From a virus (Duplodnaviria; Caudoviricetes), in the IMG/VR virus record IMGVR_UViG_3300045947_000123, positions 1 to 40,411 of that record: 40,411 bases of DNA. One strand, written 5' to 3'. Below, piece after piece: positions 1 to 40,411 of the stretch. The position numbers and the translations under genes were made by a program. Every line of letters begins with the position of its first letter. Position 1 is the first letter of the stretch. The notes under the pieces were generated by a model. It was not told the DNA's origin. It ran no database searches and worked only from the letters and a program-made list of their open reading frames with translations.

Positions 1-127
1 GACCGCCGCGCCTCACTTGCCATACCCTGACGTCCCGACGTTGCCATTCCGTCACTGCCGCGAACACCAAGCCGTGCCACGACCGCCACGGCTGACCCGA
101 CCACGGCTGACCTAGTCGCGCCTCGCG
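1..127. repeat. Terminal direct repeat, left copy (circular assembly overlap)
   Basis: 1-127 is identical to 40285-40411; 127 nt is a typical assembler k-mer overlap, implying a circular or complete genome of 40284 bp. Confidence 0.95.
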
Positions 128-437
128 TCACCCAGCCAAGCCAACACCAGTCCTCGCCGTAGCCTCGACCGCCAAGCCACATCCGGCCAAGCGCCGCCTA
201 CGCAAACCGTGCCACACAGGACATGCCGCGCGTACCCTCGACCGCCCCGCCTCGACCGCCGCCCACACCCAACCGGCGCTGGCCCCCACTGCCGCGCGTC
301 CCCAGCCACGACCGCCTGGCCCCGCGCCACCCAGCCAGACCCCGCCTAGCCGCACCGGGCCACGACCGCCCAACCCAGCCAGACCCCGCCCGACGACGCG
401 ACGCCGTCGCTTGCGTTCCGCGCGATGCCTCGGCCAG
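1..437 (-). repeat. GGY-NN pentamer array, 5' part (putative guide ncRNA array)
   Basis: Minus strand reads in 5-nt register, e.g. GGCG GTCGT GGCCC GGTGC GGCTA GGCGG GGTCT GGCTG GGTGG CGCGG GGCCA (370->317); delimiter gaccgcc/cactgcc on + strand at 1, 53, 81, 167, 240, 254, 287, 310, 364. Confidence 0.9.
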
Positions 438-914
438 CTACTGCCTGGCGCGTGCGAGCCGCGTGGACAGCGACTCGATCCGCGCCACCAGCTTCGACAC
501 ATCCCGCTGCAACCCAAACGCGGCGGCGTACCCGAGCGCGCGTTGCGCGGACGCCGCCGCCCGGTCGAACTCCTGCGCGAGACACTTCGCCGCGAGATCC
601 TTCTCCGTCAGGATCCGCGTGACGCTGACGTACCCCTGTTCGCGCGGATGCTCTGGGTCGTGCGTGTAGAGGGGCACCTCGACCGTCGTGTTCTGAATCT
701 CCACGCTGTACACCACACTGCGAATCAGCCGACGTGCCGTCTGTCGCCAGTGCTCCAACGCCGCCGCGTTCACATCCCACTCGAACTCGTCGTGCAGCGG
801 CGACGACGGATCCTTCGCATCCCCGATCACCTCGTCGGGGGTGAGTCGGCCCTCATGCTCTAGCTGGCGCAGGCGCGCGATGACGCGACGACGACGCTCA
901 TCCCCGACACTCAT
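438..914 (-). CDS. 158-aa hypothetical protein, partner of the RAMP/Cas7-like protein
   Basis: ATG overlaps the upstream stop (ATGA at 911-914); globular-looking sequence LTPDEVIGDAKDPSSPLHDEFEWD..ARRLIRSV; its stop codon abuts the array. Confidence 0.85.
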   Translation of the reverse strand: MSVGDERRRRVIARLRQLEHEGRLTPDEVIGDAKDPSSPLHDEFEWDVNAAALEHWRQTARRLIRSVVYSVEIQNTTVEVPLYTHDPEHPREQGYVSVTRILTEKDLAAKCLAQEFDRAAASAQRALGYAAAFGLQRDVSKLVARIESLSTRLARARQ

Positions 915-1732
915 GGAGCGTCCTCGTCGGCCTCATCGTCGGCCTCGACCTCGGCCTCGATCTCCTTCGGCAGTGCGCTCCCACTCACTTGGCGACGATC
1001 CAGTTCTTCCGTGTACCAGCCGAACAACTCCTCGGTCTCGTCGTCGTACGGCGTCAGCTTGGTCATGAACTCCATCTGCGCGCCGCGCCCCATTGTGGTC
1101 ACGATGCGCTGGAATTCGTGGTCGGCGGGATCCACGATGCGGAAGCTCCCGTAGTCGCCCGCCCCCTTCTCACTGCGGTGATCGCCCACCCCGACGTACA
1201 TTCCCGCTGCCGCCACGAGCCGCACGATGAGCGCCTCGGTCAGGATCGGACGCACATACCGCAGCGTGAGGTAGCAGGCCCACTCCGGCAGGATCGCGCG
1301 CGTGCGGATGTCCGGCGTCCGGTTCATGTCCGCACTCCGCACGCCGGTCATGTACAGATGCGGGAGTCCGTAGAGGCCGATGGTGTAGCCTACCGCATGC
1401 ACGAGCCGCCCGATCTGCGCCTTCTTCGTGCCCGGCAGATCGAGCGCGGCGGTCGCGAGGGACTTCTTGAACCCGACACCGGGATGCCCGAGATACGTCG
1501 GTTCCTTCGGATCCTTCAGCACCAACGGTGAGTCGCGGAACTCCTGCGGCACGTCGTGCTTCAGTGAGCCCTGGCGGGCGGCGGCATTCTTCCGGCCCGC
1601 TGGAAGCAGAAGCTCCCGCTTCGCCTTCGCCGCCATCCGATTCGCGACGAACGGCGTCGTCCCGATGAGCGCGAGGTGTAGGCGTCCCTCGTTGACCTCG
1701 ATGATCGTGGTCTCGCGTCTCTCCTTCGCCAT
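911..1732 (-). CDS. RAMP/Cas7(Csm3)-like protein, 273 aa
   Basis: AAGGAG RBS; motif order LHLALIGTTPF (beta1-P), YLGHPGVGFKKSL (like the RAMP IPGSSxKG helix), RAILPEWACYLTLRY, and glycine-rich loop GMYVGVGDHRSEKGAGDYGSFRI; acidic tail. The fold call is inference. Confidence 0.7.
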   Translation of the reverse strand: MAKERRETTIIEVNEGRLHLALIGTTPFVANRMAAKAKRELLLPAGRKNAAARQGSLKHDVPQEFRDSPLVLKDPKEPTYLGHPGVGFKKSLATAALDLPGTKKAQIGRLVHAVGYTIGLYGLPHLYMTGVRSADMNRTPDIRTRAILPEWACYLTLRYVRPILTEALIVRLVAAAGMYVGVGDHRSEKGAGDYGSFRIVDPADHEFQRIVTTMGRGAQMEFMTKLTPYDDETEELFGWYTEELDRRQVSGSALPKEIEAEVEADDEADEDAP

Positions 1733-1744
1733 GGGACCTTCTCC

Positions 1745-2596
1745 TTATGCCGCCTGAGGGGGCGGGAAGGTGTGGCTGTCGGACTCGTCCGGTTCCGGTT
1801 TCCCCCGCCCCTGCAACTGTTCCGTCAGCGCATCGAGCTTCGACTTGGGTGGGACGGTGTCCGGCACGACGGAGACGATCTCCACCGGGATGTCGTCCAG
1901 GGGCAGGCCCAGTTCTGCACGCTCATCCAGGGCTACCGCCCGCTGCAACTCGACGCTCGCGGGCAGCAGTTTGGCGAGGCGGCGCAACACGGTCTTCGCG
2001 GCCATCGCTTCGTAGTCCGTGACCCACGGGCCCGTGGTCGCGGCGCGTGACCGCTTGCGGATCGCGTCAATCTCCCGCTTCCACATCCACTCCCACTGGA
2101 CGCCCCCCTCGCGGAATCGCGCAATGGCATAGACCGCGATGAGCTCCCCGGCCTCGTCGCCTTGAAACGGCTTGTGCTCCAGCACGGGCTTCATGCCGTA
2201 CGCGAATTTGAAGGAGTCCTTCGCGTGAACCACGCGCACCTCGATGGACTCGATGCGCCCGCTCCGGCGCGCGAGATCGAGGAGTCCCTTGTAGCCGGGG
2301 ATGAGCGTCGCCGTGCCCTTGAAGGGCACGAGGTAGGCGTACCCCAGGACGCCGTCGGGTTCCAGCCCCAGCTGCGCGGCCTGCAGGATCGCATTCGCGA
2401 GCGAGGTCTTGCTGCAGTCGAGGAGGTCCGGCGTTCGCACGCACGAGGTCAGTGCCACGCGCGTGAGCCGGTCCACGGTGAGATGTTTCGGGAGCGCGCG
2501 CGCGATCTCCTGCCGCATGTCCCCGAGCAACGCGCGCACGGTGTCCACCTTCTGCTTCAGCGGGACCATCTGCGTCTTCGATTCGGTCTGGGTCAT
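1745..2596 (-). CDS. recT: RecT-family ssDNA annealing protein
   Basis: ARALPKHLTVDRLTRVAL, AAQLGLEPDGVLGYAYLVPF, GYKGLLDLARRSG, PWVTDYEAMAAKTVLRRLAKLLP; start trimmed to MTQTESK (ATGA overlap). Confidence 0.95.
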   Translation of the reverse strand: MTQTESKTQMVPLKQKVDTVRALLGDMRQEIARALPKHLTVDRLTRVALTSCVRTPDLLDCSKTSLANAILQAAQLGLEPDGVLGYAYLVPFKGTATLIPGYKGLLDLARRSGRIESIEVRVVHAKDSFKFAYGMKPVLEHKPFQGDEAGELIAVYAIARFREGGVQWEWMWKREIDAIRKRSRAATTGPWVTDYEAMAAKTVLRRLAKLLPASVELQRAVALDERAELGLPLDDIPVEIVSVVPDTVPPKSKLDALTEQLQGRGKPEPDESDSHTFPPPQAA

Positions 2597-3492
2597 GTGT
2601 CGCGTCCCTTCTGGCGGCGCAGCGTGCGGATGGTCGCGGCCTCGACCGTGTAGGCGCGCCGGTCGTGCGCCATCCACGAATAGACCGTGCCGTTGGGGAG
2701 GACTCCCCGTTCCGCAGTGCCCAATGCGCCACGCAACATGTTTTCGGACTGCAGTTTCTCCGCCTCCCAGTACTTGATCTGACGCAAGGCCTCCTCTCGG
2801 TTCTCATCCCACCCGATCGCCTCGCCGGGCAGCGGGATGACCAGCCCCGGCTCGTGCCGGGGATACAGCCGCTGGAGCAGTTCGCGCGTGCGGGGACTCG
2901 CGTCGGGAGGTGGCGGGACGCCCGTCTCCACCGTGCGCCAGAACGCATGCTCTTGCGCGAGCAAGGCATCGATGAAGGGCTGATTGCGCGGGACATCCAA
3001 CCAGCGGAACTTCTGTCCGCCAAAGAGCACGGCGAGCGAGGCGTACTCCGCCGTCGAATACACCGCCAGCTGGTGCTGCACCTGGACGAGGTAGAGCAGG
3101 GGCGCGTCCCCATCCGCCCACTCGTCCTGCTTCCAATTCGCCGCCGTTTTGATCTCCAGCAGGCCGAGCGGCGGACCGGGCAGCACCCGGTCGAGCGTGG
3201 CGAGACACCAGGACTCGCTGGGATGTCGCTGGATGTTGTAGGGCCCCGGATCCTGCACGAGCCGCCCGGTGTCGTCCGCGTACTTCTGCGCGATGACGGG
3301 CTCCAGCCGGTGGCCCCACTCCAGGTACTCGCTCTCGTCGGGCGCGATCTCCGCGACGCCGGTCTTCTCACACCAGAGGGCGAACAGGCTCTTCCAGGGG
3401 CTCACGCCCGCGATCACGGCGGCGTCCGACGAACCGACGCCGGTCCGGCGTTCCGCGAGCCACTGCGAGCGCGCGTCCGTCGTCGTGGTCAT
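2593..3492 (-). CDS. yqaJ: YqaJ/lambda-exonuclease-like viral recombinase nuclease
   Basis: WLAERRTGVGSSDAA, WGHRLEPVI, ATLDR..LLEIKT (PD-(D/E)XK), YLVQVQHQL; adjacent to recT. Confidence 0.93.
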   Translation of the reverse strand: MTTTTDARSQWLAERRTGVGSSDAAVIAGVSPWKSLFALWCEKTGVAEIAPDESEYLEWGHRLEPVIAQKYADDTGRLVQDPGPYNIQRHPSESWCLATLDRVLPGPPLGLLEIKTAANWKQDEWADGDAPLLYLVQVQHQLAVYSTAEYASLAVLFGGQKFRWLDVPRNQPFIDALLAQEHAFWRTVETGVPPPPDASPRTRELLQRLYPRHEPGLVIPLPGEAIGWDENREEALRQIKYWEAEKLQSENMLRGALGTAERGVLPNGTVYSWMAHDRRAYTVEAATIRTLRRQKGRDT

Positions 3493-3809
3493 CGTGGTCC
3501 CTCCTCGCGTCCGATCTCCGCCAGCATCGCGGCGTGTCCGGCGAGCGCCTGCGGCCATGTGGCGTATCGCACCGTCGTCCCGTTGTGCTCGTCGGTGCTG
3601 AAGATCATGGTTTCGAAGATGTGGCGCGGCCCGTCCTTCGACCAGGCGTGATCCAACCCGAGGAAGACGGTGGACACCACGGTCCCGTCGGCATACCGAT
3701 CCTGTTGGACGATCCGTCGCGAAGTGTGCTCTTCAAACCATCGGGCCCAGGTGAGGAGGTCGACGGGGACAGCGACGTTGTCCTCGTTCAGGATGTAGTA
3801 CTCACTCAT
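3489..3809 (-). CDS. Phage hypothetical protein
   Basis: 106 aa, VSTVFLGLDH..FETMIF motif; GGGAG RBS; stop overlaps the yqaJ start. Confidence 0.8.
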   Translation of the reverse strand: MSEYYILNEDNVAVPVDLLTWARWFEEHTSRRIVQQDRYADGTVVSTVFLGLDHAWSKDGPRHIFETMIFSTDEHNGTTVRYATWPQALAGHAAMLAEIGREEGPR

Positions 3810-4215: not shown

Positions 4216-4938
4216 TCAGTCGTCATCGTCTCGGCGGAATGGATGCTTGCGCTCGCGCCACTTCCCCGGTGCATGATCGGGATCGTCGGCCGGCACCTCG
4301 ACCAGCCTGAATCCTTGGGCCCGGAGATCGGCGCGCGCCGCCTCCGGCATCGTGTCGGGGATGATCCGCTCGATGTGGGTGGGCCGCATCGCGAAGAAGA
4401 CACCGGGCCGCAGGATGTGCCCGCGTCCCGCGCACTCCTCGCACGGGCTGAGGCCTGGCAGATCGGCCGCTGCTGGACGGTCCTGGACGCCGCTCCCCTC
4501 GCAGGGGCGACACATCTCCGTGATCGTGCTGGGGTGCGCGAAGAAGACCCACGTCGTCCCGATCTGGAACCACTTCGGGATCTGGCCGGGGATCCGCTTC
4601 GACACGCCGAACATCGCGGCTTCCGTCGCGAACGTCCCCGGCGTGTAGAAGGCGTCGCCCACCCAGACGAGGCCGGCCGTCTCCACCTCCAAGACCTTGC
4701 CGAGCGGACACCACTCGCATCGCACAGGATCGCCGCTGGCGCAGACCGGCGCGGCGTGGAGGATCTGCTTCGGCCGGATCCGCTGGAGCCCCCGCGTGAA
4801 TCGCGGCTCGTGCTCGCACAGCGGACACGGCATCAGCCGGATCGGGAACCGGCCGCAGGCGAAGCCGGCTCCGTCGCCGACGAGGTAGGTGCCGCCGATC
4901 TTCCGGTACCCGCACTGCCGTCGCACCTCAACCGCCAT
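4216..4938 (-). CDS. Cys-rich phage hypothetical protein (240 aa)
   Basis: RRQCGYRKIGGTYLV N-terminus, several CxxC pairs including CxxCxGxG motifs; GAGGAGG RBS. Confidence 0.75.
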   Translation of the reverse strand: MAVEVRRQCGYRKIGGTYLVGDGAGFACGRFPIRLMPCPLCEHEPRFTRGLQRIRPKQILHAAPVCASGDPVRCEWCPLGKVLEVETAGLVWVGDAFYTPGTFATEAAMFGVSKRIPGQIPKWFQIGTTWVFFAHPSTITEMCRPCEGSGVQDRPAAADLPGLSPCEECAGRGHILRPGVFFAMRPTHIERIIPDTMPEAARADLRAQGFRLVEVPADDPDHAPGKWRERKHPFRRDDDD

Positions 4939-31272: not shown

Positions 31273-32724
31273 TCAGCCCCGGTACGGATCCCACGGGCCG
31301 ACCGGCTGCGGGGCCCACGGATCCCCGTCCGCTGCCGGCATCCGAATCCCCGCCTGCAGGATCCGCGCGTCCGCCGCGTTCCCGTACGGATCGAACTGCG
31401 TGATCGCCTGCAGCTGGTAGCGCTCCGGCTCCGGGTCTTGGAGCCCCACCGCCAGGTGCCCGAACGCATCCGCCCCGTGCGAACTCCAGTCGTGCGCGGG
31501 CTTCAGCCCAAAGCTCCGCGTCTCCTCATCCCACTCCTTGTGGTACTGCCCCAACGCCGCCAGCCCGCCGAGACACGTCACTTCATCGAAGTAACAGCGC
31601 GGGAACAGCACGCGCGCCGCCGTGATCCGCTCCAGCGGGTTCATCTTCGGGATCACCCGGAAATGCAGCGGCGGGTTCAAGTCCCGCGCAATCTCGTACG
31701 GGTTCTTCCCGCTCCCGAACTCCGTCTTCCGCACGTCGTGCGGCGCGGTGTGCGCCAGCCCCGGCCGGTACCCGTACCGCTTCCCCTGCACGAGCGCGTT
31801 CAGCTGGATCAGGTTCGACCCGCTCCCTTCGAAGTAGTCGATCAGCACCACCCGCCGCCCCACCTGCTGGTACCACCAGATCGCCGTCTCGTCCCGATAC
31901 CCCAGATCCCACGCCGTCTCCACCGGGTACCGCGAGTCGTACGGGAACCGCCCGATCCGCCCCTCCGCCCGCGCCCGCCCCAACTCCGCCTGGTAGTACG
32001 CGCCCGGCGTGTGCCCCTGAAACGCGCAGTAGTACTCCTGCTGGATCCGGTCCTCGTCCATCCCGGCCGCGCGTTCCTCCGCCAGATCCGCCGCCGTGAA
32101 CACCCCGTCCGTGTCGTCCACCGTCAGCCGCTGACAGAACCACGCCGGGTTCTGACTCGCCATCCGGTACAACGTCGCCCCGATATTGTCCGCGCCCCCA
32201 ATCGGCGTGTACGCGAACACCGCCCACCCCTTGTTCTGCCGGATGATCGGGGCCACCACCTCCCACGCCTGCGGGTGCTGCTTCCCGTACTCCGAGAACA
32301 CCACCCCCACCGGATTCGGCCCCCGCATGTCGTCGTACCGATCCGACCCAATGATCTGAAAACTCGCCCCGTTCACGAACGTGATCCGCATGTCCGTCTC
32401 GTTCCGACTCGCCACCAACTCCGGCGGAATGAACCGCAAGAACGGCTCCCCGTCCGTGATCCCCTCCCACACCACCCGCCGCCCCTGCTGGAACGTCGGA
32501 AACACGTAGTAATACGTCCCCACCCGCTGCAGCGCCGCACACACCAACCAGTTGAACGCCGTCGTGTCCTTCCCCGCCCGCCGATGCCACACCAACGCCG
32601 CGTACCGACACCCCCCCGTCATCGCGTCCCAGAACGCCTGCTGATACCGACGCGGCGCGTACCCGTGCGGCAACTCCGGCGTCGTCAGCGCCGGCCGGAC
32701 CGGCGTCCGCGCACTCCGCCCCAT
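31273..32724 (-). CDS. terL: Terminase large subunit
   Basis: Walker A WHRRAGKD, Walker B VVFSEY, coupling motif YTP, RNase H-like TAWDLG and SHGADAF. Confidence 0.95.
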   Translation of the reverse strand: MGRSARTPVRPALTTPELPHGYAPRRYQQAFWDAMTGGCRYAALVWHRRAGKDTTAFNWLVCAALQRVGTYYYVFPTFQQGRRVVWEGITDGEPFLRFIPPELVASRNETDMRITFVNGASFQIIGSDRYDDMRGPNPVGVVFSEYGKQHPQAWEVVAPIIRQNKGWAVFAYTPIGGADNIGATLYRMASQNPAWFCQRLTVDDTDGVFTAADLAEERAAGMDEDRIQQEYYCAFQGHTPGAYYQAELGRARAEGRIGRFPYDSRYPVETAWDLGYRDETAIWWYQQVGRRVVLIDYFEGSGSNLIQLNALVQGKRYGYRPGLAHTAPHDVRKTEFGSGKNPYEIARDLNPPLHFRVIPKMNPLERITAARVLFPRCYFDEVTCLGGLAALGQYHKEWDEETRSFGLKPAHDWSSHGADAFGHLAVGLQDPEPERYQLQAITQFDPYGNAADARILQAGIRMPAADGDPWAPQPVGPWDPYRG

Positions 32725-32813
32725 CTACCCGCCGTCCCCCGGATCCGTCGGCCCGTGACCCGCACCGTCCGCCGGCCCGCACGGCCCGGGCGCCCCCGCC
32801 TCACCCCCCGCCC

Positions 32814-33101
32814 TCACCCCGCCGCCCACGTCCCCGCCTCCGCCACCACCTTCACGTTGACCCCACTCCCCGCACACCGCCAGAACGGCTCCCGCACATG
32901 CTGCGGCGTCGGCCGCTGCAACGGCCCCGTCCCCGCCAACCCCACCGGCGGATTCGCCGGATCGATCTGCACCACCTGCGGCGGCACCACCCCAACGATG
33001 AACCCCTGCCCACACACCTCACACACCACCCGCGCCCGATTAATCGTCACCGGACTCGCCGCCGTCCCCTCCGGCATCCCACTCCACGCCACTTCGCTCA
33101 T
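32814..33101 (-). CDS. Hypothetical protein with CxxC
   Basis: MSEVAWSG start with GGGAGG RBS; VCEVCG. Confidence 0.5.
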   Translation of the reverse strand: MSEVAWSGMPEGTAASPVTINRARVVCEVCGQGFIVGVVPPQVVQIDPANPPVGLAGTGPLQRPTPQHVREPFWRCAGSGVNVKVVAEAGTWAAG

Positions 33102-33542
33102 CCCCGTCCCTCCCGCCGCCGCGGCGCGTCCCGCCGTCCCCCCCCGCAGATTCGCCAGATTCGTCCCCATCCCCGCCGGGCTCGTCTGCGTCGCCGGACC
33201 CGCCGAGGGGGGGACGCCCACCGAGGGGGTCTCCACGCGGTTTTCCGCTGGCTTTTTTCCGGGGGTGCCGGGGGGGGCGGGCTTCGCGCGCGTGTTAGGT
33301 GCGCTTAATCTTTCCCGGTCTTCGCTCATCGGTCGTGCTCCAGGTCGCGGGGCCGTGGATGATGACGGTCGAGACCGGGTCGGACGGCGCGCAGAACGGC
33401 GCGCCACGGGGCCTAGCCGCCCCCAGGCCGCACGTGGAGCGGGCAGGCCAGGGAGAGAGGCCGACGGCACATGGCCGAGGCGTCCTGTGCCCCCACAGGC
33501 GACCACCCATCGGCTGCCATAACCGATTGGTCATGCAGCGGA

Positions 33543-34651: not shown

Positions 34652-35265
34652 GGGACGTAACCCCGGGCGCGCCGGAGATCCTCCCGGCGGGCCATGATGG
34701 CCGCGAGCGGCTCCGGTCCGGCCGAGTCCGGTCCGGCCGAGGTGGCTGAAAGCCCCTCCGTGTCACGCTGTGACACCGGGACGGGAAGGGACGGGTTTGG
34801 GACGGGACGGGACGGGACGGGAGAAGGCCCTGTGACAACGTCGTGAGTCACGCGGCTGTCACGGTGTGACTCACGGCGTGAGTCACGCTGTGCGTCACGC
34901 ACCTCATCGAGGGTGGCCTGGATGCGCTCCCGACGGCGGTGTTGTCGGACGTTGTTGGCCCGCTTCCCGGCGGCGCGCTCGACGGCGGAGAGGTTGTGGT
35001 CGAGGTAGTCGTGGATCCGCCAGTCGACCCCGTCGGCGTCCCAGAGCTTCAGCGTCACCATCTGCGCGAGCAGGCGCTTCGACGGGCGCGGACAGCCCGG
35101 CATGAGGAGCGCGAGCGCCGGGCGCGAGATCCGCCCATCGGTGTCGTGCCGCTGCGCGTAACAGAGCGACGCGACGTAGAGCCCGAACACCGCGAGGGCA
35201 TCGGTCCCGGCCGCGATGAGCTTGTCGTGGTGCGGCAGCAAGTCATCGAGCTTGACCCAACTCAC
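34648..35265 (-). CDS. Putative phage replication initiator
   Basis: VSWVKLDD..HDKL..LYV..LCYA..TDGRI..WRIHDYLDHN followed by a low-complexity linker carrying repeats; GAGGAGG RBS, GTG start. Confidence 0.65.
   Translation of the reverse strand: MSWVKLDDLLPHHDKLIAAGTDALAVFGLYVASLCYAQRHDTDGRISRPALALLMPGCPRPSKRLLAQMVTLKLWDADGVDWRIHDYLDHNLSAVERAAGKRANNVRQHRRRERIQATLDEVRDAQRDSRRESHRDSRVTHDVVTGPSPVPSRPVPNPSLPVPVSQRDTEGLSATSAGPDSAGPEPLAAIMARREDLRRARGYVP
34758..34900. repeat. Iteron-like repeats within the rep gene (ori candidate)
   Basis: Clustered GTCAC/GTGAC and CGTGAGTCACG copies (34842-52, 34877-87) plus a (GGGAC)n run at 34778-34822. Confidence 0.55.
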
Positions 35266-38214: not shown

Positions 38215-38500
38215 ATTTGCATAACCGATTGATGACGGATTGCGGACGGGGGCATGACCAATCGGTTATGCAAATGGTCATGCCCGTCCGCAATCCGTCA
38301 TCAAAAGTGTGGCCCACGGGACGGACGGCATGGACGGCAGCGTCCACGCACCCCACATTTTGCTGGGCTTTTTCCCCAGCGTTTCCACCCAGACGTGGGA
38401 GAATCCGATATCATGGCCGACAGGAAAACGCGAAATCGCCAGTGTTCATGCGTGTTCCAGATGGGACTTGACTCTCCGTCCGCAATCGGTCCACAATCTG
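38215..38500. other. Candidate attP/recombination region upstream of the integrase
   Basis: Lower GC and apparently non-coding; interleaved 17-, 22- and 11-bp inverted repeats; repeated CCGTCCGCAATC (38284, 38476) resembling arm-type sites. Confidence 0.55.
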
Positions 38501-38554
38501 ACAGGACGGAATGAGCCGTCCACAAAGAACACCGAGCCCAGGAGGCACGGACCG

Positions 38555-39847
38555 ATGTCCACGCAGCCCGCCGCGCATCGCGCCCATGACCGGGCACCCA
38601 AGTTCATCATCGACAAGCGCACCGGGTACCTCATCCTCGTCTACTACCCCGACCCCCAGAGCCCCAAGCGGAAGTACCTCTCCACCATGACTGCCGACAA
38701 GATCGAGGCCCAGCAGTTCGTGGAGCACCACCGGGACCGCATCGGAGCCCAACGGCGGGGCCACGAGACCATCGCGTCGAAGGATCAGGAGTCGTTCACC
38801 ATCGGGCAGGCGCTCGACATGGTCGTCGCGGACTATCTCAAGAATGAGTACGCGAACGCGGACGGGGTCAAGGGCACGTCCGCCCTCATCAAGCTGGAAC
38901 TGGGCAGCGTGCGCTGTCTGGCGCTCGACTTCGACCGGATCGAGAGCGCCCGCGACGCCTGGGCCAAGAAGGGCAAGAAGAAGGGCACGGTCAACCGCTA
39001 CATCGCTCTCGTGCGGCGCGGGTTCAAGCTCGCCGCCGAGCGCAAGCGGATCCCGCATGACCTCACCTTCAAACTCCCCCGCTACGATGAGAAGCCGTTC
39101 ATCCGCAAGGGGTATGTCACTCGACGGGAACTCGACCTCGTGATCGCCCACGAGCCGTGGGCGGCGAGCCGTGACCTCTACGAGTGGTCGTTCTGGACCG
39201 GGATGCGCTTTGGCGAGTCCACGGCTCTGAAGTGGGAGGACTACGACGAGGAGACGTTCACCATCCGTCTCCACGGGACGGACGCGAAGTCTGGCGAGGG
39301 GCGCGCCCTGCCGTTGCCCCCTGGTCCGCTCCGCGATCTCATCGAGCGTCGCCTCGCGGGCCAGCGGGGTCCGTACATCTTCCAACATGCGGGGGCCCAG
39401 ATCATCGACAAGGACCGCTGGGCCTGGGCCTGGAAGCGAGCCGGACTGCCGTTGCGCCCGGTCAATCCGAACCTGACGAAGAAGAAGAAGGGGGGCTCGC
39501 GGCCCCTGCCGGTCAAGCTCTTCCACGATCTGCGTCGGACGGGCGTGCGGAACCTCGTGCGCGCCCTCGTCGCCGTGAAGCACCCCACCCCGGAGCGCAC
39601 CGCGATGCTGATCTCTGGGCACAAGACGCGCGCCATCTTTGAACGCTACAACATCATGGACGAGTTCGAAGCGGCTCCGGCGCTCGTGGCCCTCACGCAG
39701 TATCACGCGACGCAGACTCCGCCGCCCGCGCCCCCGGCGGCAGGCGTCCCGGCGCGCGTCGTCGCCATCACGCGCCAGCCGCGCGGCTCATCCACGCGAG
39801 CAGGCCGCGCCGCTCAAACCGCACCGCGCGTCCGATCCGCTTCGTGA
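38555..39847 (+). CDS. int: Tyrosine recombinase / phage integrase
   Basis: Catalytic R (TGMRFGE), K (DAKSG), HxxR (FHDLRR), H (SGHKT), Y (ERYNI); AGGAGG RBS before ATG at 38555. Confidence 0.95.
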   Translation: MSTQPAAHRAHDRAPKFIIDKRTGYLILVYYPDPQSPKRKYLSTMTADKIEAQQFVEHHRDRIGAQRRGHETIASKDQESFTIGQALDMVVADYLKNEYANADGVKGTSALIKLELGSVRCLALDFDRIESARDAWAKKGKKKGTVNRYIALVRRGFKLAAERKRIPHDLTFKLPRYDEKPFIRKGYVTRRELDLVIAHEPWAASRDLYEWSFWTGMRFGESTALKWEDYDEETFTIRLHGTDAKSGEGRALPLPPGPLRDLIERRLAGQRGPYIFQHAGAQIIDKDRWAWAWKRAGLPLRPVNPNLTKKKKGGSRPLPVKLFHDLRRTGVRNLVRALVAVKHPTPERTAMLISGHKTRAIFERYNIMDEFEAAPALVALTQYHATQTPPPAPPAAGVPARVVAITRQPRGSSTRAGRAAQTAPRVRSAS

Positions 39848-40052
39848 ACGGGTACTCGTCGCGGTGCTCGTACAGGTAGCTGACCGAGATCCCCAGTAGT
39901 CGCGCCGCCTCACGGGCCGGGATCAGACGTGGTTCCCCTGATCCCGGCCCGTCGTCGTTCGCCTCCCCGCTCGTCTTCGCCAACTCCTCCGCGAGCGCGA
40001 TATGCGCCCGTGCGACGGCGTGATGAAAGCGTGCGTACGCTGCCTCAGACAT
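39768..40052 (-). CDS. xis: Excisionase-like HTH protein
   Basis: LIPAREAARLLGISVSYLY..PFTKRIGRAVRFERRGLLAWM; GGGAGG RBS; next to int. Confidence 0.8.
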   Translation of the reverse strand: MSEAAYARFHHAVARAHIALAEELAKTSGEANDDGPGSGEPRLIPAREAARLLGISVSYLYEHRDEYPFTKRIGRAVRFERRGLLAWMSRAAGA

Positions 40053-40284
40053 TCCGTGCCTCCCACGCCTCGCCGCGTTCAGCCAAGCCAGGGCAGGCCC
40101 AGCCGCGACCGCCGCGCCGAACGTTACCAAGCCAGGGCTCGCGTCGCCAACCCTAGACCGCCGGACCAGTCCGCACTCACCGCATCCGGCCTCGCCCGAC
40201 CGTGCCTGTCCTCACCGCACCTCGCCCGGTCAGACCAGGACCGCCGGACCACACCCAACCTGTCCACGCAGTCCAGCACGCCTG
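40053..40284 (-). repeat. GGY-NN pentamer array, 3' part (continuous with 1-437 across the junction)
   Basis: e.g. GGCG GTCCT GGTCT GACCG GGCGA GGTGC GGTGA GGACA GGCAC GGTCG GGCGA GGCCG; delimiter gaccgcc at 40107, 40156, 40239. Confidence 0.9.
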
Positions 40285-40411
40285 GACCGCCGCGCCTCAC
40301 TTGCCATACCCTGACGTCCCGACGTTGCCATTCCGTCACTGCCGCGAACACCAAGCCGTGCCACGACCGCCACGGCTGACCCGACCACGGCTGACCTAGT
40401 CGCGCCTCGCG
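40285..40411. repeat. Terminal direct repeat, right copy (identical to 1-127)
   Basis: Exact duplication of the first 127 nt. Confidence 0.95.

Follow-up and report, generated by a model that had tools for sequence, protein, structure and literature searches.

The repeat that crosses the join of this circular temperate soil phage genome, behind a RAMP-fold gene and its small partner, is best explained as an array of guide RNAs belonging to a VIPR system, a kind of gene silencing published in 2026 (10.64898/2026.04.26.720920); we put the probability of this reading at about 0.88. The window, i.e., the whole stretch of DNA analysed, is 40,411 nt long. The genes vipr and vap and the array follow one another head to tail on the same strand. 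The locus has the features of a VIPR system: a RAMP protein (Vipr), no CRISPR-Cas locus, vipr and vap carried by the phage, tracts of GGY/NN pentamers, and no self-target. The locus and its neighbors are laid out as follows.

1..445, minus strand: 5' part of the array, with GGCA-GTAG overlapping the vap stop codon, then a non-periodic leader of about 55 nt, continuing to the contig join
40050..40411, minus strand: continuation of the array (3' part) beyond the circular join (40285-40411 repeats 1-127)
371..390, minus strand: U0, a short tract of 4 pentamers that partly repeats the second half of U1
317..370, minus strand: putative guide unit U1, GGCG + 10 pentamers
174..227, minus strand: putative guide unit UD, GGCA + 10 pentamers
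88..142, minus strand: UE, a tract of 11 in-phase pentamers that contains a 10-nt duplication and follows two +1 indels
40182..40245, minus strand: putative guide unit UA, GGCG + 12 pentamers
40114..40162, minus strand: putative guide unit UB, GGCG + 9 pentamers
40065..40113, minus strand: putative guide unit UC, GGCG + 9 pentamers
438..914, minus strand: 158-aa Vipr accessory protein (vap candidate), from locus co-occurrence and phrog_15946
911..1732, minus strand: 273-aa Vipr (stand-alone RAMP, Cas7/Csm3-like), from fold, homology, thumb R145 and G-loop D184-H185-R186
1745-2596, minus strand: RecT, upstream context
2593-3558, minus strand: RecE/YqaJ exonuclease, upstream context
within 39768-40130, minus strand: excisionase-like HTH_17, downstream context
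within 38309-39847, plus strand: tyrosine integrase, downstream context

The original prediction had described positions 437 to 1 as a non-coding array with a 5-nt GGY/NN periodicity, and had proposed autocorrelation and a phased logo as checks. Both were carried out and both agree with it. Autocorrelation of GG on the minus strand from 437 to 1 gave 31 at lag 5, compared to 19.4+/-3.7 in dinucleotide shuffles (z 3.2; 1 of 1000 shuffles reached it), 36 at lag 10 (z 4.4; 0 of 1000) and 33 at each of lags 15 and 20 (z 3.8 each). Side peaks at lags 14, 24 and 29, i.e., 5n-1, are those predicted by -1 slips. A phased logo built from 70 pentamers in 8 hand-chosen in-phase tracts held 1.27, 0.96 and 0.75 bits at positions 1-3 (G 87%, G 80%, Y 94%) and 0.25 and 0.02 bits at positions 4-5, as expected from the claim that the last two positions vary freely while GG is mostly held; exact GGY occurred in 45 of the 70, equal to the family value of 0.62. 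Six tracts in the array reach 9-12 pentamers, where the VIPR criterion is at least 4 and typically 9-16 units. TRF was silent on the array, as expected because two of every five bases vary. Stop codons interrupt all six frames (2-6 per frame) across the 619-nt joined array and five chance ORFs over it had no Pfam match, which upholds its description as non-coding.

Units in the array are separated by a change of register. On the plus strand, GACCGCC starts at 1, 81, 167, 240, 254, 310 and 364, and the variant CACTGCC at 287 and 53; all of these starts had been listed correctly. A further variant, CTACTGCC at 438, overlaps the stop codon of the 158-aa gene. The array, about 685 nt in this count, holds 10 copies of GGCGGTC, compared to 22 on the entire minus strand of the 40,284-nt circle. 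Both parses quoted in the original prediction (370 to 317 and 87 to 64) are exact. Its rule that a unit is a delimiter plus a whole number of pentamers was too tidy, however: of the 12 intervals from delimiter to delimiter, only 3 fit 4+5n exactly, 5 contain a second -1 slip and 4 contain other indels. Instead of a 9-nt motif, the delimiter is more aptly described as a GGCR step of 4 nt that precedes a regular first pentamer, or as two pentamers sharing a G.

The array also does not end at base 1. Window bases 1-127 are identical to 40285-40411, and the IMG/VR record is that of a complete virus with direct terminal repeats, giving a circle of 40,284 nt. From base 1 (= 40285) the array runs on along the minus strand to about 40050, for roughly 630 nt of periodic sequence in all, and ends just before the excisionase-like HTH and integrase genes; the span of 1 to 437 given earlier therefore has to be extended across the join. 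Contigs from three other soil runs are identical to the window over bases 1-383, 1-650 and 1-811 and reach 469-881 nt beyond base 1. Since they carry identical letters, the ragged phase of the array is not an assembly error.

Among 53 ORFs compared with PHROGs we found portal, major head, tail tube, internal virion proteins, terminase, RecE/RecT and integrase, and no cas families. To judge from these genes, the window is a temperate podovirus-like phage; its two capsid relatives are fragments without vipr. PADLOC, run on 8 proteins, gave two marginal matches (E~0.004), on RecT and the HTH protein. Elsewhere in the genome, repeats at 34777-34900 (CGGGA x9 and GTGAGTCACGC-type 12-nt repeats) lie inside the replication-initiator gene, are likely origin iterons and account for a period-5 peak on the plus strand. 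Two interleaved perfect inverted repeats (17 and 22 nt) at 38215-38304, upstream of the integrase, resemble operator or attachment-arm sites; copies lie at 33518-33536 and 38476-38498, and a 19-nt part is found again in inverted orientation 4.7 kb off, close to the terminase region. In the terminase large subunit and the region upstream of it (31273-33300), third codon positions are extremely biased toward G/T and GC skew is strong.

The 273-aa ORF has 1874 homologs. Sequence searches of its product against Pfam, PDB sequences and PADLOC returned nothing, and SUSP1 Vipr was likewise without a PADLOC match. Its predicted structure (pLDDT 86.8, pTM 0.80) had 60 Foldseek matches at E<=0.001 (best E 8.7e-6), and the top matches were all of the Csm3/Cas7 family. 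Alignment of the model to Csm3 with VIA-align gave Z 9.2 over 150 residues at an rmsd of 3.7, where the background of the tool is 7-8; fold scores of 8-9 are only modestly above this background, which counts as a point against the assignment. The link to Vipr was seen in profile comparisons as well: HHalign to SUSP1 Vipr gave a probability of 94% (E 1.1e-7, 51 columns), the family HMM matched the single SUSP1 Vipr sequence at E 4.7e-10, and phrog_4652 was matched by both proteins. SUSP1 residues R138, D177 and R179 align to R145, D184 and R186 and are invariant in 101 of 101 homologs; D177 and R138 of SUSP1 Vipr are reported to be essential (10.64898/2026.04.26.720927). The position of SUSP1 W178 is W, F or G across the family and His185 in the window's Vipr (1 of 101), and SUSP1 H17, K33, E71 and M72 are without identical partners there, in an N-terminal alignment that is weak. 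The 195-aa SUSP1 ORF that we used has 9 of the 10 numbered residues checked from that paper, position 175 being V versus T in the paper. The 273-aa protein is thus a homolog of SUSP1 Vipr, a stand-alone RAMP-fold protein with an RRM core, thumb and G-loop. Homologs of Vipr at the level of about 50% are spread over many phyla.

Of 140 vipr loci, 98 encode a homolog of the 158-aa protein (phrog_15946) within the locus. The model of the 158-aa protein is mostly helical (pLDDT 90, pTM 0.48) and had no Foldseek match at E<=0.001; Pfam searches of 89 homologs showed nothing recurrent, and HHalign to SUSP1 Vap1 gave a probability of 0.1, i.e., no homology. Homologs were also seen in 27 Mycobacterium phage records (H11-H37), while the vipr search gave no Mycobacterium phage; these are possibly orphan vap genes. 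A role of the adjoining RecE/RecT genes in guide acquisition was considered and found no support, RecT being matched at 0 of 140 related loci; the pair is not kept beside related VIPR loci.

RNA contigs were uninformative. Four metatranscriptomes each held 1-5 short single-read RNA contig pieces, scattered over the array and the genes alike, and the single piece inside the array (37-187) is silent on strand, ends and level. Bases 1-2000 had no match to a sigma-70 promoter or a terminator, nothing in the window reached gathering score in Rfam, and folding z-scores of the leader, the 3' flank and two units ranged from -1.45 to +0.72, with no folding signal in the leader or 3' flank.

Comparison with related arrays, another check suggested at the outset, places the window in a family. 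Of 94 viral loci, 85 have a GG period-5 tract (GGnnnGG count of at least 15 in 300 nt) on the same strand as vipr, in most cases some 500 nt beyond that gene, and the count on the opposite strand of those loci was never above 13; among vipr loci from cellular genomes, 48 of 56 have arrays. That homologs of the RAMP gene are flanked by like architecture agrees with the idea that the repeat is a guide array. Two or more 4-nt steps occur in 113 of 118 distinct arrays drawn from 140 loci, with GGCA at 496 and GGCG at 313 of 1098 steps. GGCGGTC had been proposed as the delimiter, and in the family this holds in part: the step is GGCA or GGCG, the form that dominates most often is GGCA-GGC (46 of 113 arrays), followed by GGCG-GTC (27 of 113). 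Unit length between steps has its mode at 9 pentamers, and 472 of 839 units have 8-12. The window's array is more ragged than most of its relatives, and part of it may be decayed. No shared tail was seen by eye in 45 related flanks.

Several related arrays have features of their own. Loci L004, L005, L011, L051 and L060 carry staggered arrays of 2.1-2.9 kb with up to 37 GGCGGTC steps, and several of them have vap upstream of vipr. Three Alphaproteobacterial prophages (L125, L135 and L137) begin their arrays with a 7-nt step, GGATCAC, then one pentamer and GGCA, possibly a leader signal. The pentamers of L017 and L127 are rich in GGA, not GGY.

Searches with the window's own units gave no convincing target. 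The best own-genome matches of its six long units were 61-72%, under the 80% criterion for self-targets. IMG/VR was scanned with exact 16-18-base cores of five units, which matched 19 times for UB, 4 for UA, 13 for UD, 35 for U1 and 6 for UE; with these exact cores no full match was found, the best being 17/18 (UB), 19/24 (UA), 18/20 (UD), 18/20 (U1) and 20/22 (UE). A convincing target of UA was found in 0 of 50 related records. Matches of three units were rejected as chance: one of 22/24 for UA in a chromosomal bacterial hydrolase gene (metagenomes), those of 18/20 for UD in two mutually unrelated ORFs (one like an SPP1 portal, the other long and glycine/serine-rich), and the 20/22 match of UE, which lies outside a long sense frame.

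For related arrays, the dinucleotides of 467 distinct units (8-14 pentamers each) were read out and compared with both strands of the 140 loci (2.05 Mb, arrays masked). With one base skipped between dinucleotides, 7 of 467 units matched at 90% or more, whereas a skip of 0, a skip of 2 and reversed order each gave 2; 60 within-unit permutations gave a mean of 1.8 and a maximum of 4. The enrichment rests on few matches (7 vs about 2 expected), two of which share one site. Six of the seven lie in frame in long frames of phage genes, with the skip on the codon wobble base. Their targets include a prohead protease (24/26 and 17/18, from arrays L026:5300 and L015:5680 to L054), a methyltransferase (16/16 and 15/16 at one site, from L066:2971 and L103:5324 to L072:3264), a Sak4-like protein (19/20) and, from L057:5311 to L064:4757, the 3' end of another phage's vipr gene (18/20), i.e., VIPR directed against VIPR. 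Independent arrays here converge on one prohead-protease gene and on one methyltransferase site. The seventh match, from L038 to a 45-aa frame in L108, is likely chance and was dropped before the boundary count described below.

One unit was put to a genome search, that of L138 in a Bradyrhizobium prophage (array 4741-4879), picked before any match had been seen. It matched a virion-region gene of its own prophage at 18/20, with both mismatches in one codon, and matched 20/20 in 1 of 301 genomes of the genus, where the reversed control was without a match. The perfect site lies in a 48%-identical homolog of its own target gene, within a syntenic sibling prophage that lacks vipr at the syntenic place and had no vipr match in the 20 kb covered. 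The loci of this Bradyrhizobium guide-target set are L138, L177 and L238/L239. In a boundary count over seven cases, units agreed with their targets at 127 of 136 bases. For the three pentamers flanking the delimiters on each side, the figure was 17-25 of 84 bases at four offsets, which is background. Matches thus stop at the delimiters, and each unit is therefore an independent address. The idea that the delimiter yields individual guides is borne out to this extent, as a boundary of specificity in related arrays.

From these observations a mechanism can be proposed. The vap gene and the array would be read as one transcript, as their layout suggests, and one guide would correspond to the sequence from one GGCG/GGCA register slip to the next; its predicted effect is the silencing of a rival phage's gene. 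Judging from the published SUSP1 structure and the residues kept here, one Vipr protomer would bind each pentamer, with GGY buried and NN presented. The NN dinucleotides of a unit would read a DNA site two bases at a time with one base skipped, the skip falling on the wobble base and the match ending at the delimiter, as computed in relatives. The 4-nt step would break the register of the filament, so that each unit may assemble on its own. Binding would repress transcription without cutting, likely with help from the partner protein, as published VIPR assays suggest. Physical processing, in which cutting or trimming at the junctions between units would leave guides some 45-60 nt long, is somewhat favored.

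The closest competing account departs from the proposed mechanism at the cutting of junctions and nowhere else. It holds that the array stays uncut, one long RNA carrying tandem Vipr filaments, with the -1 slip as an insulator only, and forms a polyvalent ribonucleoprotein for several targets. The lack of a structured tail or ribozyme between units, in the Rfam and folding results given above, would fit this, as would a two-gene locus without a nuclease gene; in the available text of the VIPR paper, moreover, confirmation by sRNA-seq is stated for ribozyme and single-guide layouts and not for staggered arrays (10.64898/2026.04.26.720920). The fig. S18 legend of that paper, however, has "individual processed vrRNAs," and conservation of GGCR at most steps suggests a recognized site and not a change of spacing only. 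We regard the uncut array as rather unlikely, although a real contender.

Less probable still is a VIPR locus whose array has decayed for the most part, leaving few usable units or none. The extra slips or indels in 9 of 12 intervals, the internal duplications, the atypical His185 and the absence of targets for the window's scanned units all point that way. Against this, vipr and vap are intact and look like expressed ORFs, five clean units of 9-12 pentamers are left, the share of exact GGY equals that of the family, and target misses are to be expected since the host and its phages are not identified. A low-complexity coding repeat, a microsatellite, a replication iteron array or an assembly artefact at a contig end is very improbable. 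The region does lie at a contig end, in a GC-rich genome with further GG-rich stretches (32700-33300 and 34700-35000), but the stops in all six frames, the near absence of information at positions 4-5, the co-occurrence of the array with a RAMP gene in unrelated phages and the same letters in contigs from other runs that pass base 1 argue against all of these.

A guide-RNA array of a VIPR system, which we prefer, has a close counterpart in print. The fig. S18 legend cited above (PMC13142463) describes staggered vrRNA arrays with "1 nt overlapping positions," and literature searches for such arrays or for the system's full name returned only VIPR papers, of which partial text was available (10.64898/2026.04.26.720920, 10.64898/2026.04.26.720927, 10.64898/2026.10.15.759431, 10.64898/2026.10.21.760802). 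As far as that text describes them, staggered systems share with the window a phage-borne vipr and vap, GGY/NN pentamers, units of about 9-12 repeats and successive guides offset by a 1-nt overlap without a spacer, which the 4-nt GGCG/GGCA steps fit; nothing differs categorically, the window's copy being ragged and having GGCG-GTC at most junctions. Natural targets are predicted there for types II, III and V, and none is stated for staggered arrays.

The type II system of SUSP1 is similar in its homologous Vipr, with the thumb Arg and G-loop Asp/Arg kept, and in the 1-nt-skip, wobble-aligned code, seen here in the units of relatives (10.64898/2026.04.26.720920, 10.64898/2026.04.26.720927). SUSP1 guides are described, in a setting of satellite conflict, as directed against rival phages, with the vipr gene of these among the targets and a lower self-match (10.64898/2026.10.15.759431), a likeness to the window's relatives. 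In contrast, SUSP1 guides are described as separate RNAs of about 100 nt with a pseudoknot tail, its Vipr has 195 aa versus 273 aa with a C-terminal helical extension, and its Vap1 is unrelated to the 158-aa accessory protein. The window locus, with units that abut without a structured 3' tail and no Vap1 homology, is therefore not type II. Class 1 CRISPR backbone RAMPs (Csm3/Cas7, Cmr4) share the RAMP fold and a filament on guide RNA, but the window has no cas operon or repeat-spacer array and places specificity in interleaved dinucleotides instead of a contiguous spacer.

The VIPR system and its staggered layout are thus already in print and the window locus is one further member; what is added is the family comparison. 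In relatives, delimiter-bounded units act as independent guides under the 1-nt-skip code, and for the guide of one relative a sibling prophage holds a site without mismatches and its own prophage an escape within a single codon. These data supply a guide-target pair in Bradyrhizobium, a cultured genus, and make the separation and loading of tail-less staggered guides directly testable. Tentatively, and at less than even odds, staggered arrays may multiplex 10-35 guides without a tail, ribozyme or dedicated nuclease, the missing base at GGCR either insulating tandem filaments or being cut by an out-of-register Vipr. If true, tail-less multiplexing through the GGCR slip would separate guides in a way unlike the Cas6 or RNase III of CRISPR and would be a compact natural design for multiplexed gene silencing.
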